NCBI RefSeq assembly: GCF_964355755.1
Contig: NC_092677.1
Coordinates: 9,508,101 to 9,572,100 of the forward strand
DNA: 64,000 bases
Reading direction: 5' to 3'
Source of the DNA: Antedon mediterranea
Lineage: Eukaryota; Animalia; Echinodermata
In this document: positions 606 through 48,783 of the stretch, piece by piece
How the letters are laid out: each line of letters begins with the position of its first letter
How positions within the stretch are numbered: position 1 is the first letter of the stretch
Translations under genes and position numbers: made by a program
The notes under the pieces: generated by a model
The model's input: the letters and a program-made list of their open reading frames with translations, nothing else
The model's database searches: none
What the model was told of the DNA's origin: nothing

Positions 606-2758
606 ATGACGCATCATAGTGGAGGTGTGGATCAATTTGGAAACTTCACCCACAATATCGGATATCCAACATTCGGGAATAATTTACCTGACCTCCCATT
701 GGATTTTCTTAATTCTTCGTTCGCCGCCGGATTGGAGGGGGACACTGCATCGGGGGCTGTGGACTGGATATCGAAGATGTACGCGGGAACGACCCCCGAA
801 ACAACATTTGTCACAGGTTCAACTGATTCCTGGGTGGTGACACAACCAGGGATGACACAGAGTGATGTAGCACCATCGAATCTGGTGTTAGGTTCGATGA
901 TGCCCACGACGATGCATTGTGGTGAGATTGCATCTACATCAGCATTGACATGTGAATGGGTTGAAAATAGGATTGGCACGTCGATTATCGATGGGAACAA
1001 GAAAATGGTTCCCAATAGGATACAGGGTGAGGCAGCATCATCAAACTCTTGGGACATAGGCTTCCCGATAGATTCTATGCCTAAGATGATGATGCGAGGA
1101 GATTTCCCACTATCTACCGGATTTGACGAAGGGACATCACATGTGAAGGTACCACAAATTGCCACATCAACCACGTGCGGATTAATTGATGACGGTGTAG
1201 GTCTAATGGATGGAGAGTATGAGGAGGAGGAGGAGGAGGAAGACGACGACGATGATGACGTCATCGCTATATCTAATCCCGTAGCACAACGTAGGCCGGT
1301 GCGTAAAACAATACGAGAAGGTAAATTGTATTTTTTTAAATAAAATTGAATGTTTGCTTTTACTACTATTGATTTATATTAATTATTGACTATTATTTAT
1401 GAGCAGGGCGGATCTTGGGAGGGATAAGGGAAAAGTTACTACCGTTAATCCAGGGAAGAGTGATATTAATTAATTAAACTATTCACTGGGTGGTCAGGAA
1501 GATGATGGTGATGATGAGGATGATATTAATGGCGTTACTATGTCAGGTGATAAATATGAAGATGGTGATAACTAATTTGAGATTTCGTATATGCACTGAG
1601 AATGACAATGACTTCGAAATAGCGTTACGTAAAGTTAATTGGTCAGATATCTAACCATAGCCATCAGCGCAAGCTCAAGGAGTATGAACGCCAGGGCGAT
1701 GGCGGTCGTGGGTTTTAGTGGCACCCAAGAATTACTTATTAGAATTACATTCTAATGTACTTAATTCGCATAAATTAAAATAGATCAGTAAGGCAAACAT
1801 TTGATGTCAACGACAATATAAACATTTTCTTACATAGCTTTACCATCAGAACTGAAGATAACTCTAAAATACCGCAAAAAGGAAGTGAAGTGTGTCGACG
1901 TAGATATCAGCAACGGGTTTCGTGTTGGCTATGGCGTCGTTCTAGATACCAGCAACGTGTTGACGTTTCCCACTGTGTGCGTTCCTAACATCCAGAACGA
2001 GGCCGATAGATATGAAAAAGAAGCATCAATGAAGGAATATAAGTTGAGAAAAACCGTACTTGAAAACCTCGAGAACGGGTATGTATGTATAATGTATGTT
2101 TTAGCGTCAAATTACGCAAATTGTAAATATACCGTTCGCAACTAAATGAAAGGCGCCAATGGATCAAGGGCCTAACTAATACCAACCTAATTATAATTTA
2201 CAAAATTACTAAACATTTTCAATGCTTAGAAGATTGTCCTTTTAACAAGTAATTTGTCAGGAAAGATTATGATGTAAGTCTTTTTAATTCCACAGCGTTG
2301 AGTTTAGTATTTCGAACGGAATAATCTACGCAACTCGTCGATGCCGCGCCAAAGTATTCTGCTTCAGTACTCAACAGCACAACGGACAAGATCCAGTAAA
2401 ACTGCAACAAGGGGTACCGCTCAAAATATTCGACTACAATTCCTTCGATGACACCCTCAGGGAATTTTATTTAAATCAAATTGGCGCCAATTCTATTGCA
2501 ACATCATTCCTAAAACCAAAGATCTTTTTCAGTTTCGCACAGGGATGGAAACCTATGCATGATCGGGATTATGTTTTAAGACGTTTGGGAGATTTGGTGC
2601 AACCAACTTCTTTAAATGACTGCCTTGTAACCATGGAGATTGTACCTCTACGCGCTGTGGATTTTATCATGGGGTTACCCGAAAGTCGTGACGTAGCGGA
2701 GTCGATAACCATGAGCTTAAAACAAGATTATCTTCAAATATCTACTTCACTAAACTAA
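606..2758 (+). CDS. IRF-like protein 1: acidic/disordered N-terminus plus IRF association domain (IAD), no DNA-binding domain seen; ~472 aa
   Basis: Exons 606-1320, 1838-2078 and 2296-2758 join in frame at GT-AG sites (phases 1 and 2). Spliced product: ...ALPSELKITLKYRKKEV...GFRVGYG...VLENLENGVEFSISNGIIYATRRCRAKVF...PVKL...KIFDY...KIFFSFAQGW...VPLRA...DYLQISTSLN*. This follows the IRF IAD motif order (L.I.l.YR, GcRl.Y, L..l.rGv.l, YA.RlC..rvy, P.kL, kiFD, I.l.FG..w, vP..A). In-frame TGA at 600-602 and TATAAAA at 551-557 upstream. Confidence 0.85.
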
Positions 2759-2794
2759 GTATGTTTTGTGTAATGCCAAATGCATGTCATGCTT

Positions 2795-2975
2795 AGCTAT
2801 TTACCCGGGCAATTAGTTTCATGGGTACAGTTATCGCTAACCTTGGTGGGAAAAAATTAGCTATTTACCCGGGTAATTGGTTAATTAGCTATTTACCCGA
2901 GTAATTGGTTAATTAGCTATTTACCCGGGTAATTGGTTTTATGGGTACAGAATTATCGCTAATTTTGTTGGGAAA
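2795..2975. repeat. Short tandem/duplicated repeat (AGCTATTTACCCGGGTAATTGGTT core) just 3' of gene 1
   Basis: Four copies of AGCTATTTACCCG(G/A)G..AATT; the ATGGGTACAG..TTATCGCTAA..GGGAAAAA segment occurs twice. Confidence 0.75.
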
Positions 2976-3349
2976 AATCTCACGACACGACACAAAATAC
3001 TATTACTAATATAGTATAGAGCTTTACTTCTGCTGCGCATGATTTCAATGTGGTCGGCGTTGCGATAGCTCCGTTAGTCTATAACAGTCTTCTTTATACT
3101 ACTATAGGAGGAATCCTCCTGCTATAGGAGGTATAAGGGTTAGTGAGCAAATGGACGAAATATTGTATTCGAGAATCTGTACGCAAACGCGAGGCATCGT
3201 TCGGTCACCAGAAACAATTATTCGTCAATAATGCAATTCTGAGTCGTAATTGACACAATTTATAGGGTTTTCAGAATATTTTTCTTGCCAGTAAAAATAT
3301 TAATATTTTTTTAGTACGTTATTAAATACCATACGTTTATTACATTGTC

Positions 3350-3471
3350 TTGGTTCCCACAAAGGAGACAACGCAGGACATAGACCCAGCGCAAGCGAGT
3401 TGACCAATCACAAGCGACAGTTCGCATTAATCCATCGCTTACTTCCGATACGTCTCTAGTGGGAACCAAGC
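3350..3471. mobile_element. MITE, family A (TIR CTTGGTTCCCAC...GTGGGAACCAAG)
   Basis: Terminal inverted repeats plus an internal ACGCAA/TTGACCAATCACAAGCGA core shared with the copy at 49152-49331 and with degenerate copies near 3990-4110, 10700-10800, 14345-14480, 14730-14810 and 51620-51690. Confidence 0.7.
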
Positions 3472-4320
3472 ATTATAGATAGTTAATATAAAGAATATCA
3501 TAATTGTTAATATAAATGTATATCAGCAGCTGAATTTATGTTTTTTACGTTAGTTAGTCTATTTAATTACCGTTATACTAAATATTTAATTTATTCCGGT
3601 TTGTATTATATTCTATTTATAAAATTGCTATCATTACTAAAACATTCCATTGACAAAAAAATTGTTGTTTTTTTTTACAATTATGACGTATTATTTGCAA
3701 TGCTTACTGTATGCAAACAGGCCTTTCATAACATGGGTATTTTGTGGTCTTTGGTTTTGGCCTATTAGAGGAACCATTGTATTGTGTTCATCCTTCCAAC
3801 GGAGGAAGTGATTATAAATGGAGTTGTCTTTAATGTGACAAATATGATGCCTACTGAATAGAAAGAACACGTTACAGTAACCATATACAGTAGACTATTT
3901 TGTATTATTATTATTGATTAATATATTGACAATTAAATGCACATGATCGATAAGTAGGCTTTCATTTGTGTTCCTAACGATATTAAGCTTAGTTTCCGGT
4001 GGTCACTAGAACGCAACGCGACGACATACGCGCGCGCAACGCAAGTGATTCAGAAGCGAAAAATATCTAATTGTCTCTTGTAATTGGTCAAATAACTTGC
4101 GGTTGCTAAGTACGTCCCAGTGTTTTAACACTGGGACGTACTTATAATAATTATAATATAATTATTAATATATTTTCCTTTCTTTACATAGCGAAATGTC
4201 TTAATTCGACTGTGCCGTGTCCTTAATACAGTAAAACCTCCACACATTATATTACATATTTTTAAAATAGCATACAGATGTTATGCTGTTAAGTAGTTGG
4301 CCAATGATAGATACATAATG

Positions 4321-4343
4321 TGACTCACACCGCGGGAATTTCC
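4321..4343 (+). promoter_or_regulatory. Adjacent AP-1 (TGACTCA) and NF-kB (GGGAATTTCC) consensus sites upstream of IRF-like gene 2
   Basis: TGACTCA at 4321-4327 and GGGAATTTCC at 4334-4343; a candidate non-coding first-exon donor (AG|GTAAAA) lies at 4601. Confidence 0.5.
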
Positions 4344-5094
4344 ATAAATCTATTTTTGAAAACAACATCGGCATTTATTGCAATATCCTGTATCGTTTTA
4401 ATACACGTTGCGTAAACACAACCATTCATCGGCACAAATTGATAAATGTATTGAATCGTGGGTTTTACAATCATTCTGGCGCACAATCCAGAACCAACAA
4501 CACACTAAACTGGGCATCGCTCAAGTAGGCATACATTGTACTCATTCGGCTCATTAGAACAAGACTAGATTGGGAGAAACTTGGCTGAATAATTAGTTAA
4601 GGTAAAACTGCTTGATTATCTTCAGTATTTGAATGCACAGAGAAGATGCACAATAATAATACGGTAGGCATCATAGTAGGCTATCAACCACCTCTGCTAT
4701 CCGCCATTGCGTGGGCGAGTTGCATTTAATTCTCTTTACCAGTTGGAAAACAAACTAATTAAGCACCGGTGAACTAGCCTATAGGCCTATATACAAATAG
4801 AGCTTCTGGTGGGTACGGTATATCGTCACCCACCTTTTAACCCCGGTTCGTGTGGTGACCACCCTCTCCCAATCCCCTTCTATCTTCTAATGAGGAAAAG
4901 CTGAACTTAGGTTAAACCTAATTATTCCAATCAATTGTGTTGTGGTCCAAGTATACAAAATCAAATAACATAACCAGTATCTAAATTTAACACAGGCACC
5001 TTGATGTTGTAATTTCGTCTTAAGAAAGTCACTACATAAAAATGATCTACCTTTGTTGACTGTCACAGATTCGATCAGAGGTAAACCATCCATC

Positions 5095-7216
5095 ATGGCA
5101 GAAAGAAATGATGACCACCAAACAAACCCCATCGTTACTGTTCAGACTAAAAATGGCCCGTTAGAGGTGAATACTGGACCATCACCAAAAGGTAGACACA
5201 TTTAACTTTTCATCACACATCAATTTTGCATTGTTGATTGCAGGATCAATAGAACTGGGAAATTGAAAACGGTATAATAAAAACCTTTCTACACCGCCAT
5301 AACAAGATGTAGGGGCTGTGTATTTGCCCGGGTCATACAGTACTACTCGACATTGAAAACAGCGTAAAATCTGTCCCGGGCCTAGCACCCGGGTAAGGAT
5401 GCGTAATGTATTCAGCGCTAAGCCATCAAATGAAATAGGTCATTAGTAATGAAGATTGGTAATATAAACTTTGTTTTCTATAGAGTACGAGATGAGAATC
5501 AAGGTTCGCTATCGGTCTGACGTTGCTTTGGATAAACGTATCGATATCCAAAAGGGTTGTTGTATTTATTATGGTGAACATTCATGTGAAAAGAGACCAG
5601 AGAGAATGCTTGTACCGCTTCCAGATGAGGAGAGTATTGAACGACAGGAAACCAGACAAGAAGTCAAACAATTGACAAAAGACATATTGGGGTTTTTGGC
5701 AAACGGGTAAGCTGTTGATAAAAAAAAATACATTACAAACCCATTTGAAGGTCGGGGAAGAAGCTAAAAATCCACCTATTCTAAAAGGGCCCCGCCTCAT
5801 AAGTAGGCCTACAGAAATGTTGCTAATAGTCTGTTTTATTATATTGTTGTTTTTGTTATATTTACGTGTTTAATGCAATCATTTGTATGGAAATAAGCTA
5901 ATAAGCTTTTTGGGCTATCCTGGAAAATCTTTATAGGCCTAAATGTAGGTCTATTATTTGTAATGTCAGTAATTTAATTATCACTTTCTATGTATTTTTA
6001 TGATTTTCCTAATAAATTTAAATCAAATCAAATACTGTACTGGCACCCGATTCTCCTGGGTTATCGGAGCTCCAGCGTACTTTTGAATTATAACTTTTGG
6101 CGCCACCCACAGCTATTATCTACCCTAACATTTTAAAGCAGTTGCTAGTATTTTTAAATTATGTGTGTGTTTTTTTACAGTCTGGTTTTAGAATACGGAC
6201 AGGATCGCTGTATATACGCGAGACGTCGTTGTCGCTCCAGGATTTGGTACTACAGCTCCCAACAAACCCCTGGACAAGATCCATTAGAGCTGAAGAGTGA
6301 CACAAATACAAAAATATTCGATTACGGCTATTTTTATAAGAATTTGTCTGATTGGTTCACAAACTACATGAAGGGAATACGAACAACATTAATTCGCCCC
6401 AAAATATGTTTTTCATTTGGCCAATCATGGCAGCCTTACCATAATCATCATGGAAGAGGCCCAGAGAGGCCCCAGCCAACAGCCATAGACGCCTGCGGGA
6501 TGTCGATGTACGCGGTACCATTAAACGCGCGTGACGCTATTCTTTCAATCGAGGAAGGACAGGATTGTTCAGAGACGTTGACGATGGGACTGAACAGTGG
6601 ACACCTGTTTATATCAAATGAGGAACGAGAAGAAATCTGTCAAGTGACAGAAGCATATAAAGTAGCCCATCAGCAACGACAGCAACAACAGTTACAGCAG
6701 CAACAACAGCAACAGTTACAGCAGCAGCAGCAACAACAGTTACAGCAGCAGCAACGACAACAACAGTTACAGCAGCAGCAACGACAACAACAGTTACAGC
6801 AGCAGCAACAACAACAGTTACAGCAACAGCAACGACAACAACAGTTACAGCAGCAGCAGCAACAACAACAGTTACAGCAGCAGCAGCAACAACAACAACA
6901 GTTACAGCAGCAGCAGCAACAGTTACAGCAGCAGCAGCAACAACAACAGTTACAGCAGCAACAACAACAGTTACAGCAGCAACAGTTACAGCACCAACAA
7001 CAGTTACAGCAGCAGCAAGATCAACAATATCAGCAACAACAACACCAACAAGATCAACTACAGCAGCAGCAACAAGATGATAATGAATTTGAAATCGAAA
7101 TGCAAGTCGACACTGACGACGTATGGACAGAAGCCGATATAAATGCTGTGTTGTCGGTAGATAATATCTTCAACGCAACGTCGTTGCAAGAACTGACGAG
7201 ATTACAACAAGCATAG
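5095..7216 (+). CDS. IRF-like protein 2: 32-aa leader, IAD, HLFIS motif, polyQ tract and acidic tail; ~451 aa
   Basis: Exons 5095-5191, 5484-5706 and 6181-7216 join in frame with the same intron phases as gene 1. MAERND...PKEYEMRIKVRYRSD...KGCCIYYGE...ILGFLANGLVLEYGQDRCIYARRRCRSRIWY...PLELK...KIFDY...KICFSFGQSW...VPLNARDA...GHLFISNEERE...polyQ. Confidence 0.85.
6671..7075 (+). repeat. Coding CAG/CAA polyglutamine tract punctuated by TTA (Leu)
   Basis: Repeated CAGTTACAGCAGCAGCAACAACAA-type units in the last exon of gene 2. Confidence 0.95.
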
Positions 7217-9472: not shown

Positions 9473-9482
9473 GGGACTTCCC
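9473..9482 (+). promoter_or_regulatory. NF-kB-like site upstream of IRF-like gene 3
   Basis: GGGACTTCCC fits GGGRNYYYCC, about 260 nt upstream of ATG 9735. Confidence 0.4.
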
Positions 9483-9734
9483 CCACCATTATTATACGTC
9501 ATAACATACAAACGTATCATGCTTTGGTAACTATTTATCATGTTAATAGGCCTATTTGTACACGTGCGTTAATTCGACCGATACTGTGGGCATTTCGTCG
9601 AACCATTTCTCCATATTGTAACCTACTATTTTAGGCCTACTCGCTCTCAGCTAAAGCCTATTGCATGAATTTTGAAAAAACAGTAAAATAGTATATTTAT
9701 TTTCTTTTTACAGTGCAAACTACAGAAACTTGTG

Positions 9735-11993
9735 ATGGCCGACCATTTTACAGAAGGTAGGCCTATATTACTTATTTGTTATATTTATGGCCCACGACAA
9801 TTCAATTAGTCTTACATTCATCTGTAGCCTATCATTGGTCAAGGGCTTTTTCGTTCAGTCTCCACCGCACTGACCAAAGCAAGCAGGACCAATACGTCTG
9901 AGGCATACTGTACTAGATGCAGGGACTGGAGTCAGTATAGTGATCTGATGGGATGGGATGGGACCCAAGCTGTATTTGTCTACAGCACCCGATGGCCTAT
10001 TGCTGAAATGCAACCGAATTTTAAAATCATTAGTAGGCCTACACAGCGATATGGAAATGCCATCACTGATCAAAGGCTTCTCTCGTCCTGCAGTGCCCAC
10101 CTTGAAAGGCCGGGCCACGTCTGAGGAAAATACTGTACTATGCGGCAGGGGCCGCCATAAGAGTCAGTAGTGCTGATCTGATGAACCCCAGCTCTATTTG
10201 CTACAGCACCCGATAATAGTGCTTAAATATAACATTTAGTACAGTGATATAAAATTCTCATGATTGTGAGTGCGCCATCTTTTAAACAAATTATACTAGG
10301 TAAAGTATATCAGGCAAACAAAATAGTTTCTCTTTTCTGTACACATCCGGGGTATTGGTGGTCGTCATGTGGTATTTAATTTTGAGGGAACCTCTAATGA
10401 ATTATCTGTTTATCTTAATACAACAGCTCAGGTCCAGATAAACCTTAAGTACCGATCAACAGAAATCAAAAGTCAGATATTGGACTGTTCCACTGGATGC
10501 TGCATCTATTGCCAAGAACATTCATGTGAGCATGAGCCGTCAAGGAAGTTGGTTGAGCTACCTTTGAGCAACGACGACGCCGGTCGAAAAGAGACTAAAC
10601 TTACAAATAGACTGCTCATCGGAATGAAGCACGGGTAAGATTCTAAGCACTGAATATAAATACAACATGAATCATAGAAACAAAACGCCATAAATGTCAT
10701 TCACACTCGTGTTCTTATGACACAACGCAATGACGAACGTGCAACGAAAGTCAATTGACCAATCGTGATTGACAGTTTGGATGAACCATCGCTCGTGTTA
10801 TGGTTAATTACTTGTACGTACAGTACTTGCGGTGCGTGAGAACCAAAATTTACACAATTCTTTTTTTTTTGTCTAGTCTTCTCTTAGAATATGTCGACGG
10901 GTGTCTGTATGCGAAACGACGATGCAGTACTGTCATCTACTATCACAGCTCACAATACCACATTAATCATGACCCTATAAAAATTGAAAAAGACCAGAGG
11001 GTCATAATCTTCGATTACCCTGCCTTCAAAAATCAATTCATTAGCTGGTATACCCTTAAACTCACAAAATCAGACATAGAACCTTTCAAGCGACACAAGA
11101 TTTTTTTCAGCTTTGGACAAAGATGGCAACCATATCTCGAAAAACACAAAGAGATGGGAGAAAGCAGACCTCAGCCTACTACGTTGGACTCCTGTTTAGT
11201 GTCAATGAGCCTCGTTCCACTGAATGCGAAAGAGATGGTCATGGACACAGAGGCAGGTCGAAACGGTTCCGAGACCATTTCGATGGGTCTGAACCAGAAC
11301 TTTTTTTTCTTTTCTTTAGAAGGATCATCGCAGGTGTGTTCTTCTCTTGACAGGATGGCACAGAATTGTCGAAAAAAAATTCAAGAACATGAACAAGCCA
11401 GACAATCGTCACAAGAACTCGAAGAAAACATGAGTGTGGATCAACAGAATCCTGCAATAGAATTCGATAATCTTTTAAGTGACATTCTGGGCCTACAAGA
11501 ATCGATCGAAACCCGACAAAATGATGTTATGCAACGGCAAGGTATAACACAAAATCCGCATTTTGATATCCCTCAGCAGTATCCAGTAGAACAGCAGATA
11601 ACACGACAGCAACGTATAGATCAGCTGCAGCGGGAGTTCGAGGAAATACAACAGAATTGTGCAAACCAGCAACTACCAATGTCAGAATTGGGCCAACAGA
11701 ACGTAGCACAATGTCAAGACCAATTAGGAACATTACAGCCACATAACCAGCAGGCATGCTTGGCTGCAGATCTGGGCCAGCATGTTCAGCATGAACCTAT
11801 GGAACTTAATCACCAACCAATGCAACTATGCCACATAGAGGAGCAAATAGCTACCGAGTCGGCTCCTGCGAACGGTGAAATTATATATTTTAATTGGGGT
11901 AATGGTACTGAACGTCAAGTTGGGTTAACGTCTGAAGAGTGGTTGAAGCTTGTATCGATTGTACAAAATGAAAATTTACTGGAAACAAATTAA
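9735..11993 (+). CDS. IRF-like protein 3: 7-aa leader, IAD and long Q-rich tail; ~448 aa
   Basis: Exons 9735-9756, 10427-10634 and 10877-11993 in frame: MADHFTEAQVQINLKYRSTEI...TGCCIYCQE...LLIGMKHGLLLEYVDGCLYAKRRCSTVIYY...PIKIEK...IIFDY...KIFFSFGQRW...VPLNAKE. Confidence 0.85.
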
Positions 11994-12589
11994 GTTAAGG
12001 TACCCTCTGGTGGTACATGTACTGATATCGCAGCTGATAACAAAATAGACAGTGCTTAATTGACCAACTATTTAATTCATAAATAGAAAGTAGGCCTACT
12101 TGTTGATTCAGATTGTTATGAACCAAGTTATCAAAAACAATGTAATAAGGTGAATAATGCCATAAATAAATACAAGTAACTATATTGTAGTAACTAGTTT
12201 TGTAGAGTACTGTACAACTTATTATCCACCTAAGTTACACATTACTTAATATAACTATTACACCACGACGACGCAGCTATTGGACTTACTGCTTCCAAGG
12301 TGCGACCACCATCATCACCATAATTAAAACACGGTACGTATTTTAAAATCATTTTACTACAGTATTTAACGTGATACTGTATGTACCGTAAACCTTTCCT
12401 CTATACATCATGTGAAGATATTTAGTAGGTCTATCAATATTAATTCATACACGGCCTCATTTCCTACACGGTAGCAGCAGGCTTAGGACAGCGGCCTAAT
12501 GCAATGTGGTGGTAGGCCTAGGCCATATTATCATCCATCAATTATCCAAAATAAATTTTCAGTCACCATGAATTCCACTCTTTTATTAA

Positions 12590-13112
12590 AGATGTATTGT
12601 CCCTTTGTCAAATTCAAAAAAAAAAAAAAAGGGGGTCATTTTGAAGTATCATAATAGTTATTAATTTTCACCAAAAATTAGTCGAAAAAAAAATCATTTA
12701 ACTGAAATACAGACGTTTTCTTGTTCAAAAAATAACTTTGACTTCCAGTCAAAGTTTTCTATCAAAACATATCTCATAATGCAACACGCGTGTTTGGATA
12801 CCTCTGTATGCATAACCATAAAACTTCCTCGCGATCTGTGTGAGAACACCTTCTCATCCGTGACGAGTTGTAAACAATCCTAATTAGCATCATGCATAAT
12901 GTACTCATGGTTTAAAATCTTTATTTACTTTCGCTCAGGACGATTATCCAGACAAAATGTAATCAAATTAATTTAGCTGTTGCGTAAAATTGTTGTTTTT
13001 GGTTCGAATATTCGATTTAAAGTGAATAACTTTAATATTACTTTGATATGGCCAATTTAAATTTAGAATATGTTGACCTTCATTTTTTTGTGTTTCAAGG
13101 GACAATACATCT
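12590..13112. mobile_element. Non-autonomous Kolobok-like DNA transposon (TTAA TSD)
   Basis: TTAA|AGATGTATTGTCCC ... GGGACAATACATCT|TTAA. The paralogous region upstream of gene 3 has the empty site (single TTAA at 9361-9364). A related right end lies near 31168-31182. Confidence 0.85.
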
Positions 13113-13748
13113 TTAAATAAAAATACTAACAAAAACATGATTACATTACGATTGAATACCGTACACTATACCGCCCACATCCGCCCGGTCGCACAATGAC
13201 AAGGAACTTGGAACCCCCACCATTAGTTATACATCATAACATAAATATAAACGTTTGTGATTGGTAACTATTTATCATGTTAATAAATACATAACAACGT
13301 ATTTATAACCTGCGTTAATTCCGATATTGTGTTAGGACGGGCATTTTGTCGAAACATTTCTCCATTTTTCAATTACAAAACTGTTAATATTGGTATGTAC
13401 TATAATATATTGCTGTAATATAAATAACCGTAGAGTAGGCCTACATCAAGGTAAGTTCTGAACCATAAAATCTATATTCCCCTAAAATCAACAGTAGGCC
13501 TAACTACTTTTAAAATAGAAAGCGTAGGCTACAAAAGACTGATTCCCGTAACGCGTCATTGAACCAATTGGACCTTCTCGACAGTTCTTACTCTCTACTA
13601 CATCGCCAATTGGACCTTCTCGACAGTTCTGGCTCTCTACATCATCACCAATTGCATTTTTCATTACTGCTGAAAATATAGGCCTACGGTAGATTTCAGT
13701 TTTTTTTCTCTCTTTATAGTGGTAATTACTGTACTACTGAAATTTAAG

Positions 13749-15348
13749 ATGCAATACCAGTTTACACAAGGTAAAGTAAAGGAAAGTCCCGTGTTTTTTT
13801 AGGAGCTCATTGTGTGGTAGGGCTAGTTCCTTTCCTTAGTATTTAGGTACTCATTTATAGAGTGCATGGGAGTTGAATCCGGGTCTTTCTGATTAACATT
13901 CAAGTGCCTATATCCACTAGACTACCGTACCGCAACTCTGCAAGGTACTGTATAGTCTTTACATAAAAACGCTCATAGTTGTGAGTGCGCCATCTTTGGT
14001 TTGGTAATCGACATTTATGGTGTTTAGTTTAATTGGAGGAAACCTCAAATGAATTATCTGTTTAATTATCTTAATACACCAGCTCAGGTCCAGATAAACC
14101 TTAAGTACCGATCAACAGAAATCAAAAGTCAGATATTGGACTGTTCCACTGGATGCTGCATCTATTGCCAAGAACATTCATGTGAGCATGCACCGTCAAG
14201 GTTGATAGTTGAGCTACCTTTGCGTAACGAGGATGAAGGTGGAATAGAAACTAAACTTACAAATAGACTGCTTATCGGAATGAAAAAAGGGTAACATTTT
14301 ATAAACCCAAAATGGATGATTACATAGAAATTGTACATTATTGCTGGGTTTCCATCGCAAAGGACGTACCTGTGCGCACCTCAAGCAATTTGACCATTCA
14401 CGACGTGATGAATCATACGAACCGTCGATTGTGATTGGTCAACTCACTTTCGTTGCGCTTACGTCCTTGCGTCCTAACTTAAGCGTGATATTCGAAATAC
14501 GAAAATTCTCCAAATAAAATGTTCATATTGAACATCTTACTACTACTCGTCACTATTATATTCAATCTATTACTAACAAATTGGATTTCATGACCTGAAC
14601 ATGGTGGCTATCAATACGTTTAATGAATCCATCTTCATTCACATTCTGGTTCCAACTATTACACCTACGTGCATTTAAGCCAAGGTGCGACGAAAGTTAA
14701 TAGACAGGATGAACCACCGTTCGTATTTTAAGTTTGGTTCCCACTAGGACGTAACGCAGTAAGTAATCATCCATCGTTTATGATTGGTCAAATTACGCCC
14801 TAGTGGAAATCAGTAATTACGTTCAATTACCTGCGGATAAGTACATTGAGTTTTACTGGAGACTTAAGTCTTATAGATTATTGACATGTATTCTTTTTTT
14901 CTACAGATTTCTCGTAGAATATGCTGCTGAAGGTTTGTATGCGAAGCGACGATGCGATACTCCAATCTACTATCACAGCTCACAATACCACATCAATCAT
15001 GATCCTATGAAAATTGAGAAAGACCAGTGGGTCAAAATCTTCGATTACCCTGCCTTCAAAAACCAATTCATTAGCTGGTATACCCGTAAACTCATAAAAT
15101 CAGACATAGAACCTTTCAAGCGACACAAGATTTTTTTCAGCTTTGGACAAAGATGGCAACCATATCTGGAAAAACACGAAGAGATGGGAGAAAACAGACC
15201 TCAGCCTACTGCGTTGGACTCCTGTTTAGTGTCAATGAGTCTCGTTCCACTGAATGCGAAAGAGATTGTCATGGCCACAGAGGCAGGTCGAAACTGTTCC
15301 GAGACCATTTCGATGGGTCTGAACCAGAACTTTTTGTCTTTTATTTAG
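13749..15348 (+). CDS. IRF-like protein 4: recent duplicate of gene 3, IAD only, truncated by a frameshift (possible pseudogene); ~223 aa
   Basis: Exons 13749-13770, 14083-14290 and 14907-15348 are near-identical to gene 3. A 1-nt deletion after LNQN gives FLSFI*. Decayed tail homology with further indels continues to ~15527. Confidence 0.75.
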
Positions 15349-18300
15349 AAGGATCATCGCAGGTGTGTTCTTCTCGACAGGATGGCACAGAATTGTCGAA
15401 GAAAAATTCAAGACCATGAACAAGCTAGGCAACCGTCACAAGAAAACATGATTCTGTAACAGAATAATCTTGACATTCTGGGCCTACAAGAACCGATCAA
15501 AACCCGACAAAATGATGTTATGCAACGATTGTTATGCAATTAAAAAATTCATAAAGTCGTTCGTTTCCTGTATGAGCGTACGTCGAGCGATACGTGTCTG
15601 TAAATTTCTAAGATTTGCAAATAAATTGCCGATTTTCACCTGAAAAATAAATACTATACCGAGTGAATGATCGGCGGTTCCACACAGAGCACGCGCATCT
15701 AACATAGGCCTACGGCAACAAATGTTGTCTTCCTTTAAATAGTCCACGTGTGTGAGGAGGGGGAAAAAAGTACGATCGGTAGCATGCTGCATGAGTGTTT
15801 TTTCCAGGCCAAATAGAGGTCCCCCCCCCCCCCCACAGTGACAGTGACCCAAATACTTGGTGTCCGAAACCGATTACGATTAATGTGTGTCAAACACTAT
15901 GTAATAATAGATGAAGAATAATAATAAATAAAATACAATTTACAATACAAAAACAATATACAGTGCTGTACGGCTAATTACGTAATATAGAAGAGACACG
16001 ACGATGACGCAATTATGGGACTGCTTCCTAGAGACCACATAGTAAAGGTGTGCCCCTACTGTATATTCACAAAGTTTGCAGACCACTCACTGCAATACTG
16101 TGGGCTTTTTGAGAAACAAATTGGTCTGTTATAGGCTTAAACATTAACAATCTTGTTATGATAAATTGGTCAAAAAGTCAAACGAATGATAAACGCATCC
16201 ACGGATTATTAACGCAGGTATAATTATTTATTAATGTTTTTGTGACGTTTCAGAAAAGGTTTCTCGTGTATGAAATCATAATAGATATACCAGTATATCA
16301 ACACAGAATCACTATATCATTCATTAGATGATTTACGCATGCGTGACATAAGGTTAATTACGAATCCCGTTGTCTGTCAACATACAGTATGACTGAATGG
16401 CTAAACAAAGCCTCAAATCGCTAACTAGGAACAACAGCCGTATAATTCTGTTTGTTAACCATAGCCTAGAGAATCACTGAGATAACAGAAATATGTTTTT
16501 ACACGGGGAACGATGATGACCCGAACCAAGGCATCGTAACAACACCACACCATCACCATCTACTGCAAGCCTACAGTAAGAATCGTGCGGTAAGTACGCA
16601 ATATCTTTGCTACTGTGTATTTGTGCATCATCTGAAATGTGGTCAAAATGTGTTTATGTATTATTAGATAATTCAATAAGGAAACATTACAACTGAGATA
16701 AAGCAATGAAGTGGTCCATTGAGGTACCTAGAAGCATAGGAATTAGTTTAGGTCCTCTATTATGGGTGAGGTGAGTGACCCATTGAGGTATCCATCATGA
16801 TCCATCTCTTATGTTACGTAATGTTGAATATTATCTAGGACAGTAGTTAATATTTTTCAAAGAAAGTTTGTGGGTCGCTGATTTCAACAGAAGTAAACTC
16901 GAGGTTCCTGGTTCGATTAAGATGAGTATCAAATAAACAGTTTAAGTTATACAATCTAGTATAGGCGTGTCTGTGTATAGGCCTATATTGTAGGATCCTA
17001 AGGTCTTTGTTCCGTCAGTGCTGATTGCCTGCGGCATCAACATATGCACAATTCCTGTTGTGCTATTCAGCAGAATGCACATTAAATTGATTATGATTAG
17101 TGGTAATGCATTTAATCTACTATTTGGTCAAATTATAATACTGTATCTTCTGATAATTACGGGGATAATTAACGTATATTCAAGATAACACGCTTTGCTG
17201 CTATGTATATGGGGCATATTACGTATTACTGCACTAAGGTATTATTGTTATCATGGAGCTTATTCTTTACTCCATGTTGTTATGTGGCATACTACTACTA
17301 CTACTACTACTACTACTAATTTAGACTACGTACTAGTATACAGCATCGTGGTTCACTAATTTCTATTCGCCGTATTCTGATTATAGCATGACGGATACAT
17401 TTTTCTGGTATTATTATTTTTTTCTGTTTATTGTTGATACTTACCATAAATATGCAGCAGTCGCGAGCATGCATAAAACAATGTTGCTTTCTGAGAGGAT
17501 AATGGTCGGAGATGGACGCTTAATTACCTGCTGTTGTTGTTTCTACTTATGTAAAAATGCAACATTTAGGCCTAGGCCTAATGTTATTTAATTTCCTCGT
17601 TAACTGCAGTGATCGTTGATTACGAATCAGAGAGTACGACAATTAACTGACATTACAGAAAAAATCGATTTGATTGAGAGTGGATTAATTACACGTTTCG
17701 CTGATTTTTATTCATTGAAACACTGATTTCACGGTCATTGAAAAGTAGCAAGTTTAGACCTCTACAGGTCAGAAAAATGATCTGGAATCTTTAATTACGA
17801 TACCGTAATTTAACCGTAAGTATTGCGTCATGCAGCGAATGTGCGCGGGTCGCGTCATTTCATCAAAAATGTACCGTACACCATACGAAAATCCGCAAGA
17901 TCAACCAAAAACGGCACATTGTCCACTATAGTCTACTTTTTCTTGCTTGATTAAATTAAAAACAGTAACTCGGTTTTGGTAATTGGTTGTTATGACTTGT
18001 GTTAGCCTATAATATTATATTCTCTGATAGAACATCTCTATATTATTTTCCATAATTGTTTTATGCGTTCGTCACAATAACTTAAATACATTTGTGTATG
18101 ATTTGCATATTAATAGGCCTAATAATAATATATTTATACCCGCAATAAACTCATTATTTATAAAATTCATCATGCGTGCGGAAAATTAGGCCTACTCCGA
18201 TTCATACATCACCTCTCAGGGACTCTGGTATTGTTGTGGTTGCTACTACAATAAAACTATGACCATGAAGGTACACTGAAAAGCTCTTAGTTTGGCCAAG

Positions 18301-19740
18301 TTTCGTAATTATTTTTGGCTGAACACTTCAGGTTGAGGATATTGTTGTCAATAACAAAGTCCTTTTTGTGGTTGGTTTGTGAATTATGTGTGTTTATAAA
18401 ATGACGATATTGGCCTACAATGTTATCAAAATGAGCAGAATATTTCGTTAGTGTAGATAGCTAGTTCAAATATTGATAAATTACAATTTGGAAAGTAATT
18501 TGTTATCACGCCTTTTTTGTTTAAAATAATACCGTACTTTTTATAGGGAACCTTTGGAACCCAACACAGTGTTTTAATAGTGTTCCCTGAATAGGGATTT
18601 TCCGTGTTGTGTACAGTCTGTGGTTAAACATTGCCTCTCGTCACTGAATATGGTGTGTGTGTAATGCATAATAGTTCAATATGATATAAATCAAATATAA
18701 AATGCGTTATTAACATTGGGAGTGGACAACATATACGGGTAGGAAATAACCAATCCCCATATAATTCTATGATCCATAACCCACATATTAAATAATAAGA
18801 TATGTGACACACCCTTCACACAAGGCCCCTTCAGTCACTGAGCCATGTCTCCATTGACTGTAAGGATACACTCTCTCCATAAGCCGAAGGATTCGTCAAT
18901 ATTTTCGTTGTCTTGACAACGTATACTATGGAATGTGGGTTGGATTAAGCGCTGTGTAACGATTCAATAAGTTGGTGCTAAGTATTGTTATGTTACATAG
19001 TTCTCGTACATGCATTGTGCAGTACACTAAAGCTCGATCGTGTACATAGTAAAAATACAACTGTAATAAACAATTCGTATTGTTGCGTGCGTTGTGTTGC
19101 GGTTATCTCGCTAATCTATGGTTTATCTTCGATATATTCTTGGGATCTATTGTTTGATTATGGAAATATCGCTTTATGGTTTGAGATACGGTGCTGTAAG
19201 TAGTCTGTGATACTATACCTTTTCGAATGATTTCAATCGTGTGTTGGTTAGCTGCAGTACAAGCTAAGTGTTAACATATTATTCGCATTTCCCAAGTGAG
19301 TTAGAAGTTAGTACTACATACCTGGGGATTAACAGAATTGAATCCACAAACCAACCATAACAGGTAAGAATATCCTCGCATATAGTTCTGTGTCCAGTCG
19401 ATGTCTGTTAAAAAAGCCGATCTGGTTGCATTGTTGATGCAGCCTTTGTATTCATAGTAAGGAACTGGTCGAAAGGGACATCACATACATATTGTAATTC
19501 TGTTGTGTGTGTAAATAGGATTTTACCGTAAGTTATAGTGTCTTACATAGACTCTCAGTCCTAACCCTATACCAGCGAGTTCTCTTGAGATCTCAACACC
19601 TCCTCTCCTAGGATCTCCTATTGGTTTAGTTTGGATGTCAACTTACAGGATGATGATTGCGACCATACTTTTTACCCTCTTTACATCATAAAATTGCATT
19701 AATTAAATGACGTTTTCTCTATTTTAAAGATATCAGTAAC

Positions 19741-20987
19741 ATGGGATATGACGTTGATAGATTTGTTAGCAGTGTGAACGACGGCTTGTTGTGCTGTATT
19801 TGTCGAGACGTGCTGGAAGATCCTCTTCAATCTCCGTGTGAACACGCTTACTGCCGCTCTTGTATACAAGGTTGGCTGGTTCACGAGCAAGTTTGTCCAG
19901 AAGATCGTCAAAGTCTTCTCGAGTCACAACTAAAACCTTTATTTCGATACATGCGCAACGATCTTAATAATCTTCGCATCCGCTGTCTGAATCGCGACAA
20001 CGGCTGCGAGTTTACAACTGAACTCGAGAACCTCGCACGCCACGAGAGTGCGTGTGAATTCGGTACGCTCAATTGTCCGAATAAGAATTGTCCAGTTGTT
20101 ATGGAGCGACGAGAGCTTGATATTCACCTTGTGTCTTGTGAATACACAACGAAACAATGTCCGAAAGGTTGTGGTCTGACAATTCTAAGCTCTGATCACG
20201 ACTCCCATAATTGCGTAGGGGAGCTAAGGACGGAACTTGAACTATTAAGGTCAGAAATGATATGTAAACTGGAAGATCAACGTCATGAAAGCAAATTAAG
20301 ACTAGATTCACAACGAACTCATATGGTGCAGAAGATCAGTGGCATGCAACAAAATGTTGACGAACTTCGTGGTAAGTAGAAATCTTAGAATAAACACTAT
20401 CGGATGATTTATGGTTTGGAGAGCCCCGGGTGACCCGAGCTTCTGGTATCCCAACCCTTTTCAAAGTCCGAATAAAAAAGAGAAAAGAAAGCTAGGCAGG
20501 ACCAAGTCTTTGACATAAGGACTCCCGTCTATATCAACTTCCTAAATCGGCTCCTGAACATGATACGAAAGGTTAACAGAGTCCCGATCCTAAATGGCTA
20601 CCTGAATTCTAATCCATATCCATCTGCAGTTTCGAATTTCAAAAGAAGTCCAGGCCAAAATTATTGTGGAATGTGTACGGTGTCTGATGTGCTCATACAC
20701 CTACTACAGTAAGGGTACCAGAAGTCATAGACACCGTGTGTCTTCTTCAACAGCCCAATGCTTCAGACGCCGTTCTCTCATTTTCTTCCACAGGACAACT
20801 CTCTAATTTACAACACGAAGTCCGGTTGCTAAACGCTATGGAACGGAAACGCCGCCAAGACATGGAAAGGATGGAATTGGAAAAGAAAGAACTGATCGAG
20901 TTATTACAAGCCATTCGATTAGAAAATGAAACAGCAAAGAGTACATGTCGACAATGTAAAAGAAACGAACGAATCACGTCTATATAG
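19741..20987 (+). CDS. RING-finger E3 ubiquitin ligase, RNF41(NRDP1)/RNF151-like: RING, TRAF-type Zn fingers, coiled coil; ~274 aa
   Basis: Exons 19741-20371 and 20794-20987 (phase 1). MGYDVDRF...CCICRDVLEDPLQSPCEHAYCRSCIQGW...CPEDR resembles the RNF41 N-terminus (MGYDVTRF...CEHAFC...CPVDR). The C-terminal USP8-interacting domain is not seen; the protein ends ...RITSI*. Confidence 0.88.
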
Positions 20988-45303: not shown

Positions 45304-48300
45304 ATGGAAACCAAAATACAGGTAAACAAATTAGAAACGGAAAGAAAAAGGGACATAATTAACGGAATACTAAGAAAAGAACAAAGCATGCAGAAAGGAG
45401 AAGGAAAGAAATGAAGGGTGATTCCAAAATAGATAAATGGAACGAATTAACCTATCCGACTGTTTTTTTAATTAAAGATCTCCTCACTGTCCAACTTCTA
45501 TGAGCAATGCAACTGAAGTAGTTTGAGGAGCTTGTAAGCTGCCAGTCGAATACTTATAAAAAAATTATTAATTAGTTAATAAAAACAAATATAAATGATA
45601 GGTTTTTTGTACAATAACATCTTTTTCTTTTCATAGTCTGAGGGTGTGATGCTTAGAGACAGTTTCCATGCTTTAAACATTCTCTCTGTACTCGATACGT
45701 ATCGCAAAGAAGGCCGAATGTGCGATGTTGTTCTATGTTGTGAAGGTCATTCTATACCGGCTCATAGGTAAGTACAATACCCCTTCACATTGCAAAACTA
45801 TTGAGGCAGCTGGAGTCTGCACAAACCAGGGCTTTTACATCTGCAAGTTTTCGTTTTAAACACCAGTGTACGTCTAGTGGTCCAGAGACATTTTTTCAGA
45901 GTTTAATATGAAAGAGGTATTTTGTTAATATATTTGTCTTGTTTGTTATTTATTGTTTTATTTTAAATTTATTTCAGAGTTGTCCTTATGTCATTTAGTG
46001 CATATTTTGAGGCAATGTTTAACAGCAATATGTCTGAAAGTAGCCAATCATCAATCACTATTCACAGCATAGTTCCTTCTGCTTTGGATGCATTGATTGA
46101 GTTTGCTTATACTGGGAATATATTGGTAAGATATGCTTGTTTGCTCATATACCATGGACCTATAAATTAAAATAGTTGCTCATACAGTACTACCCAGTCC
46201 TCCCTACTTAACACAGTTGAACGCAATGGCCAAAATGGGGGGGGGGGGGGCCTGCTGTTTATATCTGGTTCACTTGCACTCAATCCCAATCGCTGCAATA
46301 TGGATTATCACACCAGAACCACACATACTGTACAGTGTACCTTCCTCAATTTGAGCTCAAATAGGCAAATTGCTTTATTTTCTATACTATAGATTAATGA
46401 AAATAATGCCCAGGATATTCTTGTTGGCTCGTCAATGCTTCAGATAACCACAGTAACGCAGACATGCAGCCAGTTCATCCAATCACAACTCGTGTCTGAC
46501 AACGCCATCGGAATTCACTTCTTTGCCAAAATGTACTCGTGTACAGAACTTCTTAAAGCTGCAGACTGGTTAATAACTAAGAACTTTGTAAAAGTCGCAC
46601 AGAGCAACGAGTTCTTAGAACTTGACTCAGAGAAACTTAAAAAACTGCTGAACGACACCTCTGTTCGTATGATACTTGGAGAGAGAATTGTGGCCGGAAT
46701 TAGTCAGTGGTTTAGATATGATCCACAGAATCGGCGTGATGGTTTGCAAGATATCATTGAATATTTAAAGCTCCAGGGTCCGCATCCCCACCTTATGAAT
46801 AATGTGAACTTTGACCTATGTGATGTCGAAGACCAAGAGATGGTAGACATATACCAAATACACACTGTAAGGTTTTTCCCATTTTTTCAGTTGAGATGAG
46901 TTTAGTTGAGTCTTTGTAACAATGTTCTTATTTGAAAATATGAAAGTTTAAATATATATTTGATATTCCTAATTATCTTAATCACGATTGATGTTTTATA
47001 CACACAGGGTTTATTGGCAATTGGTGGGGTATGTGAAGGTCTAACACTATCATCAAACCTCTTCTATGCCGGGGAGGGTACAGGAGGGTGGTGCACTGTA
47101 ACCCCAAGTTCTGTAACTTTAGCTCCATTGAATCAGGCAAGATCAACCTTTGGTATAGCTACAGATGGCTCAGATGTCTATGTTGCGGGTATGAAAATGG
47201 TTATAATTTTACAACTGGGTTAAAACCAGTCCGTTTTTCCCTTTAAAAACCCAATATGTAGATAGAAGCTACAATATTTGACTAGTACCCCTTTCACATC
47301 GCCTAGCAAAACTCAAGAACATTAACAAGAAAATAAATAAATTTTAAAAATAGGTTTCATCTTTGTAACAATTTTCATTTAAAAAAGTGCAAAATTAGTA
47401 ATTTCATATACAGATAATTCAAATCAAAGCTCCCTTCACTAAAGTATGATATGTAAAATAATTTTAGTTTAAATATGTATACCTTTACAGGTGGTAGTAA
47501 CTCCTGCTATGCTCTGAATGTAGTTGAATATGTACCTTTACAGGTGGTAGTAACTCCTGCTATGCTCTGAATGTAGTTGAATATGTACCTTTACAGGTGG
47601 TAGTAACTCCTGCTATGCTCTGAATGTAGTTGAATATGTACCTTTACAGGTGGTAGTAACTCCTGCTATGCTCTGAATGTAGTTGAATATGTACCTTTAC
47701 AGGTGGTAGTAACTCCTGCTATGCTCTGAATGTAGTTGAATATGTACCTTTACAGGTGGTAGTAACTCCTGCTATGCTCTGAATGTAGTTGAATATGTAC
47801 CTTTACAGGTGGTAGTAACTCCTGCTATGCTCTGAATGTAGTTGAATATGTACCTTTACAGGTGGTAGTAACTCCTGCTATGCTCTGAATGCAGTTGAAT
47901 ATTATGAAAACATCAGTAACAGCTGGAAATTGCTCACTCCTCTTCAAGAACCCAGAAATGGCTGTCAAGCTGCGATGATCAACAACATGCTACTGGTAGC
48001 TGGAGGTCTCAACAACGACTATCTAAAGTCTGTGGAAATGTACAAGGTAGATCGTGAGACCTGGTGCTATGTGCAACCAATGAACTTCCATCGTGGCTTT
48101 TTTGCGGTTGACGTGATTGGTGGGATGGTTTACGCTGCTGGAGGTACAGGTAGGTAAAAGAGTCAAACATTCTCACCATCTGAAATAGATTTTAGAGTAA
48201 ATAGATTTTAGGGAAATTATTTCTAAATATTTATGTTTAAATGACTGAATAATTACTGTATAGGTAATTAATAAGTACTGTTACGTGTACACATGAGTAC

Positions 48301-48783
48301 ACAAACTATAAATATAAACATACAGGATGTACAGTAAAGTATTGTATGGACATTTTTTTATACTAACCTACAGGTGGGCAGCCTGGTTGCAATGATTATC
48401 TAAGTACAGTTGAACGCTACGACTCTGGACATGATAAGTGGACCGCTCTTCCCGAAATGAACGAAGCTCGTGGGAACTTATCCTGTGCAGTTCTCAACAG
48501 ATGCTTTTACGCTATTGGTGGCTTCAACGGACACTTTCTAAAAACCGTCGAACGCTTAGATCCACGTACAAACCGATGGGTGTCGGTGGCTTCTCTACGC
48601 AATTACAGAAGTTCTTCAACCTCGGCTATTTTGGATGGTACTATTTACACAATAGGGGGATTTGATAGCAGACATGTTGTGTACACTGTCGAAAAGTATG
48701 ATCCTGTGGCAGATTGCTGGTTAAAGTGTGATGCATTACCAGCCAGGATATCTGGCCTACAGGCTGTGTCTTTGTGCATTTGA
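45304..48783 (+). CDS. Kelch-like protein (BTB-BACK-6 Kelch; CUL3 adaptor family)
   Basis: Exons ~45304-45321, 45637-45767 (MCDVVLCCEGHSIPAHR), 45978-46125 (VVLMSFSAYFEAMF...LIEFAYTG), 46393-46866 (BACK), 47008-47188, 47862-48149 and 48374-48783. Six GG-containing Kelch repeats with VERYD...W motifs. The start exon is less certain. Confidence 0.9.
47476..47902 (+). repeat. 53-bp x 8 tandem repeat spanning an intron/exon junction of the Kelch gene
   Basis: TATGTACCTTTACAG|GTGGTAGTAACTCCTGCTATGCTCTGAATGTAGTTGAA; acceptor AGs end at 47490, 47543, 47596, 47649, 47702, 47755, 47808 and 47861. Confidence 0.95.

Follow-up and report, generated by a model that had tools for sequence, protein, structure and literature searches.

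A tail serine motif of the IRF family, kept to differing degrees in four IAD-only genes of the feather star Antedon mediterranea

We analysed a 64 kb stretch of DNA (hereafter the window) from the crinoid Antedon mediterranea, a feather star, which is eukaryotic in character with a G+C content of approximately 35% and carries on its plus strand, between bases 600 and 15,350, four genes that each encode an IRF association domain (IAD, Pfam PF10401), the partner-binding domain of interferon regulatory factors (IRFs). A sequence-only reading of this DNA had proposed that a pLxIS-like phospho-switch lies just after the IAD, is kept in copies 1 and 2 and is lost in copies 3 and 4. Our analysis confirmed the observation and partly supported the interpretation. 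The tail serine of copies 1 and 2 belongs to the family-wide post-IAD serine motif, which likely functions as a kinase-controlled docking tail, carried by proteins that are IAD-only derivatives of IRFs, a reading to which we assign a probability of about 0.5.

Gene models and domain content of the IAD cluster

A tblastn search of the 64 kb with P0001, the product of gene 1, and P0002, its ortholog in the crinoid Anneissia, returned four copies and no others, and in all four genes the IAD spans two exons with a phase-2 intron between them. The corresponding RefSeq models P0001, P0003, P0004 and P0005 are identical to the window DNA and define the following genes.

606..2758 (+): gene 1, P0001, 472 residues; three coding exons at approximately 606-1323, 1838-2078 and 2296-2758
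5095..7216 (+): gene 2, P0003, 451 residues; exons 5095-5191 (beginning with the ATG), 5484-5706 and 6181-7216
9735..11993 (+): gene 3, P0004, 448 residues; exons 9714-9756 (small, with the ATG), 10427-10634 and 10877-11993
13749..15348 (+): gene 4, P0005, 223 residues; exons 13749-13770 (beginning with the ATG), 14083-14290 and 14907-15348

The last exon of gene 1 is 100% identical to P0001 (RefSeq, Antedon mediterranea), and residues 1-239, 239-319 and 318-472 of this protein were placed by tblastn at 606-1322, 1837-2079 and 2291-2755. Its product consists of a long acidic low-complexity N-terminal part, the IAD and the LQIS motif, and ends four residues later; the start of the protein (MTHHSGG..DQFGN) is common to gene 1 and the Anneissia ortholog, which argues for a genuine N-terminus. 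Gene 2 encodes a short N-terminus, the IAD and HLFIS, after which come a poly-Q stretch and an acidic end, while the gene 3 product comprises the IAD, FFFFS, a Q-rich tail and a conserved end, genes 2 and 3 running on collinearly into their Q-rich tails. The gene 4 protein is an IAD alone and bears the RefSeq name 'interferon regulatory factor 4-like'.

Splicing was assessed from run X1, which derives from a sample and study different from those of DNA runs X2-X4 and whose type is listed as a guess ('RNA?'); we treated it as RNA solely on the grounds that its contigs bridge introns at GT..AG boundaries. Such joints, all with GT..AG ends, were found for gene 2 (5189>5482 and 5705>6180) and for gene 3 (9096>9713, 9754>10425 and 10633>10876), and none was present for gene 1 or gene 4 among the run X1 matches listed. 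Gene 3 additionally has an untranslated exon ending at 9097, and its joints place the ATG at 9735 within a 43-base exon, so that the protein starts MADHFTE and passes directly into the IAD, in agreement with P0004. The poly-Q stretch of gene 2 (6688-6991) is a long CAG/CAA repeat at which the contigs of all runs break, and its assembled length is therefore the least certain part of that gene.

The four genes encode IRF-derived proteins that possess an IAD and lack a DNA-binding domain. PF10401 matched all five crinoid proteins at 64.8-80.6 bits (cut-off 27), with P0001 at 67 bits, and the IRF DNA-binding domain PF00605 matched 0/5. PF00605 was likewise not matched (E up to 0.1) by any of 120 plus-strand open reading frames (ORFs) of at least 30 residues between bases 1 and 17,185; these belong to a set of 143 such ORFs starting before base 17,000, the other 23 being nine IAD or N-terminal ORFs that were scanned separately and 14 alternative-frame ORFs within last exons. 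It follows that 'phospho-activated', as the sequence-only reading worded its proposal for copies 1 and 2, cannot mean an activated DNA-binding factor. In the Pfam check, the crinoid proteins also showed no membrane anchor, no CARD or TIR and no other domain for upstream coupling, and P0001 alone matched Smad MH2 (PF03166) at 30.1 bits (cut-off 25), below its PF10401 score.

An AlphaFold model of the gene 1 protein, built from a 25-sequence alignment, had a predicted local distance difference test score (pLDDT) of at least 90 in the IAD core. The closest structural match of the model was IRF5 (3dsh; Z 19.7, root-mean-square deviation 2.2, 181 residues aligned), followed by IRF4 (5bvi; Z 19.1), IRF3 (5jem; Z 18.8) and Smad2 MH2 (Z 18.5), and the ESM Atlas returned generic IRF and Smad clusters only. 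A tail hairpin seen in a first structure model from a shallow alignment was dropped, as it is absent from the 25-sequence model.

The tail motif in the four copies

Reading the motif positions from the DNA recovered every one of the tail sequences that had been described, namely YLQIS (2729-2743), HLFIS (6602-6616), NFFFFS and NFLSFI-stop. The codons concerned, together with that of the arginine considered below, are listed here.

2732..2743 (+): L-Q-I-S codons of gene 1, the serine being S468 of P0001
6605..6616 (+): L-F-I-S codons of gene 2, read from the DNA and aligned
11298..11315 (+): N-F-F-F-F-S codons of gene 3, with the serine retained and Phe at the hydrophobic positions
15328..15348 (+): N-F-L-S-F-I-stop of gene 4, with TAG at 15346-15348 and the motif serine gone
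2336..2338 (+): R333 codon of gene 1, the first Arg of YATRRC

In gene 1, bases 2726-2743 read GAT TAT CTT CAA ATA TCT (D-Y-L-Q-I-S) and are followed by T-S-L-N and the stop codon TAA at 2756-2758, and bases 6599-6616 of gene 2 read GGA CAC CTG TTT ATA TCA (G-H-L-F-I-S). The tail motifs of the four copies align as one column block, and the basic segment YA(T/R/K)RRC, said to be retained throughout, indeed has Y, A, R, R and C invariant in 4/4 window copies. The strict pattern L.IS occurs once each in P0001 (position 465), P0002 (309) and P0003 (249), always at the aligned tail position, with zero occurrences in P0004 and P0005; a loose hydrophobic-x-hydrophobic-S pattern occurs 2 to 9 times per protein and by itself says little.

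Between gene 1 and its Anneissia ortholog, 13/22 tail positions and 111/201 core positions are identical, and between genes 1 and 2 the corresponding counts are 9/22 and 65/191; the tail thus roughly equals the IAD core in conservation. The ortholog P0002 ends in ...SDHLQISN and thus carries HLQIS, and P0006, the Anneissia ortholog of gene 3, has NFIFVS at the motif (I-x-V-S). Residues 459-472 of P0001, which include LQIS, had pLDDT values below 50 and no secondary structure in the AlphaFold model; the motif does sit just after the IAD, as had been described, in a tail segment predicted to be disordered and accessible.

At the DNA level genes 3 and 4 share 87-89% identity, and their likeness continues for approximately 180 bases past the gene 4 stop, to 15527. 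NFFFFS of gene 3 is encoded by a T-rich run (aac ttttttttc ttttct ttag), and the corresponding run of gene 4 is one base shorter, which results in a frameshift, a stop codon and loss of the motif serine. When a run X1 contig is aligned to gene 3, one base is missing at 11301 and the letters at 11307 and 11314 are those of gene 4; this second sample thus has the same gap, which excludes an assembly error as the source of the gene 4 deletion. We also considered a hidden intron in the T-rich run of gene 3 and rejected it, since such an intron would be much too small, the long reading frame stays open and the RefSeq model reads across it. The motif is therefore canonical in copies 1 and 2, variant in copy 3 (F-x-F-S) and lost by frameshift in copy 4. 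The proposed loss in copies 3 and 4 holds for gene 4; for gene 3 it does not, as the serine is kept there and also in the ortholog P0006 (F-I-F-V-S).

These differences could alternatively reflect drift rather than a graded set, if copies 3 and 4, or gene 4 alone, were decaying duplicates without function. Gene 4, which arose recently from gene 3 by a duplication confined to Antedon, has a frameshift, a stop codon and leftover homology beyond it, and the ratio of non-synonymous to synonymous change (dN/dS) between genes 3 and 4 over the IAD was 0.41 (19 synonymous and 33 non-synonymous differences), which indicates moderate constraint only. A dN/dS value below 1 nevertheless argues against free decay, gene 3 retains a 448-codon open frame with spliced RNA contigs and an ortholog that has the same tail and C-terminal end, and the IAD of gene 4 is intact, its deletion being present also in the second sample, from the run with spliced RNA. 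We regard decay as improbable.

The end of gene 3 (11850-11993) and P0006 share a conserved stretch of approximately 35 residues after the Q-rich region (..YFNWGNG..EEWLKLVS..). It had no Pfam match, and this module is lost in gene 4.

Conservation of the serine column and arginine across relatives

An exhaustive profile search yielded 248 matches with E values of 0.001 or below, and the listing comprised the best 150. Thirty matches were checked against Pfam, nine having PF00605 and 21 being IAD only, with source names also used for sorting, and 25 sequences drawn from these canonical and IAD-only proteins formed the main MAFFT alignment. The S468 column held Ser in 23/25 sequences, the exceptions being gene 4 (Ile, through the frameshift) and a Holothuria relative, and the R333 column held Arg in 25/25. 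R333, the arginine of the proposed basic patch, aligned with the Arg of IRF5 'yaiRlc' and IRF4 'yakRlc', and we take it to be the counterpart of IRF3 R285, an equivalence that rests on these IRF5 and IRF4 alignments and on alignments of the family.

The MAFFT column that contains the crinoid serines is common to shark IRF7 SLQIS, Acanthaster LLQIS and mollusc LQIS, LHIS and LQVS motifs. Canonical IRFs, with both a DNA-binding domain and an IAD, had the tails PLFS (Anneissia P0007), LLQIS (Acanthaster P0010) and LLKFS (Diadema P0023) in echinoderms, and SLQIS (zebra-shark IRF7 P0040), PLQIS (Patella P0035), SLHIS (Liolophura P0030) and PLQVS (Gigantopelta P0022) elsewhere. Measured from a conserved V-P anchor, the serine lies 32 residues away in each of the six crinoid IAD-only copies, compared with 28-35 residues in the remaining IAD-only proteins of echinoderms, 29-31 in their canonical IRFs, 28 in shark IRF7 and 20-23 in molluscs. 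The motif is thus homologous in position to the IRF3/5/7-type motif, with a slightly longer spacer. As it shares a column with the IRF motifs and recurs in the Anneissia ortholog, neither of the two outcomes that the sequence-only reading had named as contrary to its proposal, misalignment with IRF motifs and absence from related species, was found.

The L-x-I-S serine is not a chance occurrence, because it is kept in the ortholog, occupies the same column as the IRF motifs, is accompanied by an invariant arginine and lies in a tail predicted to be disordered. The tail motif is the genuine and ancient serine motif that follows the IAD in the IRF family. Such conservation is evidence that the tail is a functional element and falls short of proof that it is a kinase switch.

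A second alignment of 151 proteins, in which the DNA-binding domain was called by a hidden Markov model built from eight Pfam-delimited DNA-binding domains, filled the serine column in 130 rows, with Ser in 108/130; the residue was Ser in 65/69 rows with a DNA-binding domain and in 43/61 rows without one. Several results weigh against a kinase-controlled tail, and the first is this frequency among DNA-binding relatives, which fits a structural or other role equally. The IRF4 protein P0050, which matches the IRF4 IAD 5bvi at 2.7e-121, also has Ser in the column (tail ..PEHI[S]SPEDY), and IRF4 is not known to be switched by TBK1/IKK at this site. This implies that the motif is a general IAD1 feature and not the specific mark of a TBK1/IKK-switched subgroup, so that conservation does not single it out as the switch mark it had been proposed to be. 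The crinoid IAD profile was nearer IRF4 (2.3e-14) than IRF5 (3.1e-11), Smad MH2 (0.02) or IRF3 (0.04) when searched against the PDB, and a profile from the first 80 residues of the last exon retrieved IRF4 and IRF5 and not IRF3. Before L, gene 1 has Tyr, a residue that is not hydrophilic, and gene 2 and the ortholog have His; the Holothuria relative P0017 has Asn in the serine column (HLQLN).

In the comparison with the IRF3 and IRF5 structures the IAD fold matched, and model residues 448 and 453 are the structural equivalents of IRF5 residue 422 and IRF3 residue 387; S468 lies approximately six residues farther out than IRF5 S436 or IRF3 S396 when counted from the last structurally aligned residue. 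IRF5 S436 in crystal numbering corresponds to S462 of variant 5 through a 26-residue offset, as given in PMC3297630. HMMER searches of the PDB with the tail alone (the 52-residue tail and a 5-row profile of the last 80 residues) found no IRF, which we attribute to the tail being too short and divergent, and MAFFT may draw serines together in Ser-rich tails. A link between the extra basic residues at 336 and 338 and motif retention was also considered and dropped, as canonical IRFs that bear the motif also have Val at 338.

These observations can be interpreted as four constitutive IAD partners that titrate IRFs or their co-factors by expression level, the tail serine being a structural or interaction feature that every IAD1 domain has inherited. 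The serine in IRF4 P0050 and in 65/69 DNA-binding matches, the proximity of the crinoid profile to IRF4, and kB-like sites near the 5' ends of genes 2-4, which would fit transcriptional control, all favour this explanation. Yet the tail is predicted to be disordered and outside the fold while being conserved like the core, it lies at the very C-terminus in many relatives in the manner of R-Smad and IRF3/5/7 phospho-tails, and the pocket arginine is invariant. We consider constitutive partners possible, if doubtful, and a kinase-controlled docking tail remains our preferred reading.

IAD-only proteins were seen in 5/5 echinoderm classes, as follows.

Crinoids: Antedon and Anneissia, IAD-only
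Starfish: Acanthaster P0013 (RAQIS), Asterias P0012 and P0158 (RIQIS and RIQLS)
Brittle star: Amphiura P0015 (MLQIS), P0020 and P0027
Sea cucumber: Holothuria, clusters of P0017 (HLQLN) and P0041 (LIKVS)
Sea urchin: S. purpuratus P0039 (LFGIS), Diadema P0019 (LFKFS) and P0011 (two IADs)

In most of the echinoderm IAD-only proteins the motif lies 1-17 residues from the C-terminus. The genes often sit beside a canonical IRF, with P0002, P0006 and P0007 sharing a contig in Anneissia and P0010 and P0013 sharing one in Acanthaster. Short IAD-only matches beyond echinoderms were unnamed ENA/Logan predictions or a superseded Saccoglossus model, and we therefore confine the IAD-only claim to echinoderms. 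Additionally, P0011 of Diadema setosum (772 residues) has two complete tandem IADs and no DNA-binding domain, representing a duplicated IAD-only architecture.

In the IAD tree of 25 rows, gene 1 paired with its Anneissia ortholog (support 100/99), gene 2 was sister to the gene 3 lineage (90/86), and genes 3 and 4 formed an Antedon-only duplication (100/99) with Anneissia P0006 as ortholog. The crinoid copies and the IAD of the Anneissia canonical IRF formed one clade (88/89), and a single origin of all echinoderm IAD-only proteins was supported at no more than 34/46. A fifth Antedon mediterranea IAD-only protein, P0008 (303 residues), is encoded on the same chromosome-size contig outside the window and grouped with the Anneissia canonical IRF IAD (98/93); it could represent an additional paralog, or else an incomplete model of Antedon's canonical IRF.

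Several of these proteins are present in RefSeq as echinoderm 'interferon regulatory factor 5-like', '6-like' or '4-like' models (Acanthaster P0013, Asterias P0012/P0158, Amphiura P0027, Antedon P0005 and S. purpuratus LOC100893779, which is P0039). They are likewise IAD-only with the same tail motif column, and names of the 'interferon regulatory factor-like' kind are automatic only. No description of IRFs lacking the DNA-binding domain or of IAD-only proteins, and no mention of LOC100893779, was found in the literature searched. IRF surveys search by the DNA-binding domain (PMC2885996), and surveys keyed in this way would miss IAD-only genes.

Neighbouring sequence, proposed role and meaning

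The window contains seven kB-like sites (GGGRNWYYCC) compared with 1.79 expected, a count reached in 0/100 shuffles. Of these, three are close to the 5' ends of genes 2-4 and one lies approximately 1.1 kb upstream of a RING/TRAF-type gene, which hints at NF-kB control of the gene cluster. The core of the interferon-stimulated response element (ISRE), GAAANNGAAA, occurs 12 times compared with 4.7 expected in the window and shows no concentration at 5' ends. The RING/TRAF-type gene at 19741-20379 (+) is an intronless 212-residue ORF with a RING finger and Sina-type and TRAF-type zinc fingers, possibly a signalling E3 ligase adjoining the IAD-only cluster. Repeats of very high depth in all four runs occupy 2836-3969, 12475-13608 and 14176-15876, and contig joints tie approximately 3417-3476 to approximately 14430-14773, indicating that the same mobile repeat lies downstream of gene 1 and within the gene 4 intron. 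Further features of the window are listed below.

4334-4343, 9473-9482, 13781-13790 and 18594-18603, also 20418, 27380 and 53165: kB-like sites
46393-48780 (+): BACK/Kelch (KLHL-type) gene
50353-60102 (-): exons of a fucokinase-like gene (GHMP-kinase C-terminal and fucose pyrophosphorylase domains)
52052-54454 (+): 801-residue reverse-transcriptase ORF within the fucokinase-like region

The crinoid proteins resemble the IRF3/IRF5/IRF7 switch in that an IAD is followed by a flexible serine-containing tail with L-x-I-S, the serine shares its column with shark IRF7 SLQIS, the pocket arginine is invariant and the IRF5 IAD is the best structural match. The corresponding human tail motifs are LHIS in IRF3 and LQIS in IRF5. 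The crinoid proteins differ in lacking a DNA-binding domain and in a spacer that is 4-6 residues longer, and the gene 1 protein has no helix after the motif because it ends four residues later. The switch sites are S386/S396 of IRF3 (PMC7672473) and S462 of IRF5 (PMC3297630), the latter being described as the key activating site (PMC3297630, PMC7228753). PMC7672473 also describes the phosphorylated tail of one IRF3 binding the basic surface of another, with R285 contacting the phospho-serine of pLxIS.

By alignment, the crinoid proteins keep both halves of this lock and key, the tail serine and the arginine, and the canonical echinoderm IRF has the same motif and the same pocket arginine. Under the mechanism that we favour by homology, an IKK/TBK1-type kinase would phosphorylate the tail serine, and the phospho-tail would dock in the arginine pocket of another IAD, either that of a canonical echinoderm IRF or that of a paralog. 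As these proteins cannot bind DNA, such pairing would modulate the canonical IRF, and the four proteins likely act as signal-controlled partners or decoys of a true IRF. Copy 1 could serve as decoy or as dominant-negative partner; copies 2 and 3, whose tails are Q-rich or acidic, could be co-factors; and copy 4, an IAD without a tail, could be a constitutive, unswitchable binder akin to an inhibitory Smad.

A further explanation is that copies 1 and 2 are adaptors in the manner of STING, MAVS, TRIF or TASL, which would display a phospho-LxIS to bring the canonical IRF to the kinase while their own IAD sits in a signalling complex. Known pLxIS adaptors likewise carry a short L-x-I-S within disordered sequence, and the pocket arginine that would be needed is present in the canonical echinoderm IRF. 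The phospho-serine of the adaptors is read by an IAD arginine (PMC7672473, PMC5753338), and the ELM class LIG_IRF3_LxIS_1 was defined for adaptors (PMC5753338). However, the crinoid motif is joined to the IAD itself and was inherited from the IRF tail rather than placed on an unrelated adaptor, no upstream-coupling domain of the kinds named above was found in the crinoid proteins by Pfam, and the canonical IRF bears its own motif. The ELM consensus has a hydrophilic residue before L, and the residue there in the crinoid copies that keep L-x-I-S is Tyr or His. An adaptor role appears quite improbable, and we return to the reading of a phospho-tail that pairs with an arginine pocket.

The Smad system offers a second parallel to this reading. 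R-Smads carry a C-terminal SSxS tail that inhibitory Smads lack. The crinoid proteins similarly combine the same fold (Smad2 MH2 and, for P0001, the PF03166 match) with a serine tail at the extreme C-terminus and with paralogs that have or lack the tail, gene 4 resembling an inhibitory Smad. In contrast to Smads, they belong by sequence to the IRF IAD family (67 bits compared with 30 for MH2) and have no MH1 domain and no SSxS.

In its widest form, our interpretation is that echinoderms possess an old and undescribed class of 'headless IRF' with a retained phospho-tail, forming in Antedon a Smad-like layer (copies 1 and 2 switchable, copy 3 variant and copy 4 tail-less) that would tune or relay IKK/TBK1-to-IRF signalling; we offer it tentatively and consider it unlikely to hold in full. 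If true, vertebrates would either have no such level of regulation or use unrelated pLxIS adaptors in its place. The locus bears on a question of comparative immunology, namely how the switch that activates IRFs came about before interferons existed. It shows that the serine motif after the IAD and the arginine pocket are older than vertebrates, and that echinoderms duplicated the signalling half of an IRF by itself. The locus also provides a natural series for the role of the tail without DNA binding, from an L-x-I-S tail through an F-x-F-S tail to no tail, and the sea-urchin member LOC100893779 would bring the family into a laboratory model.

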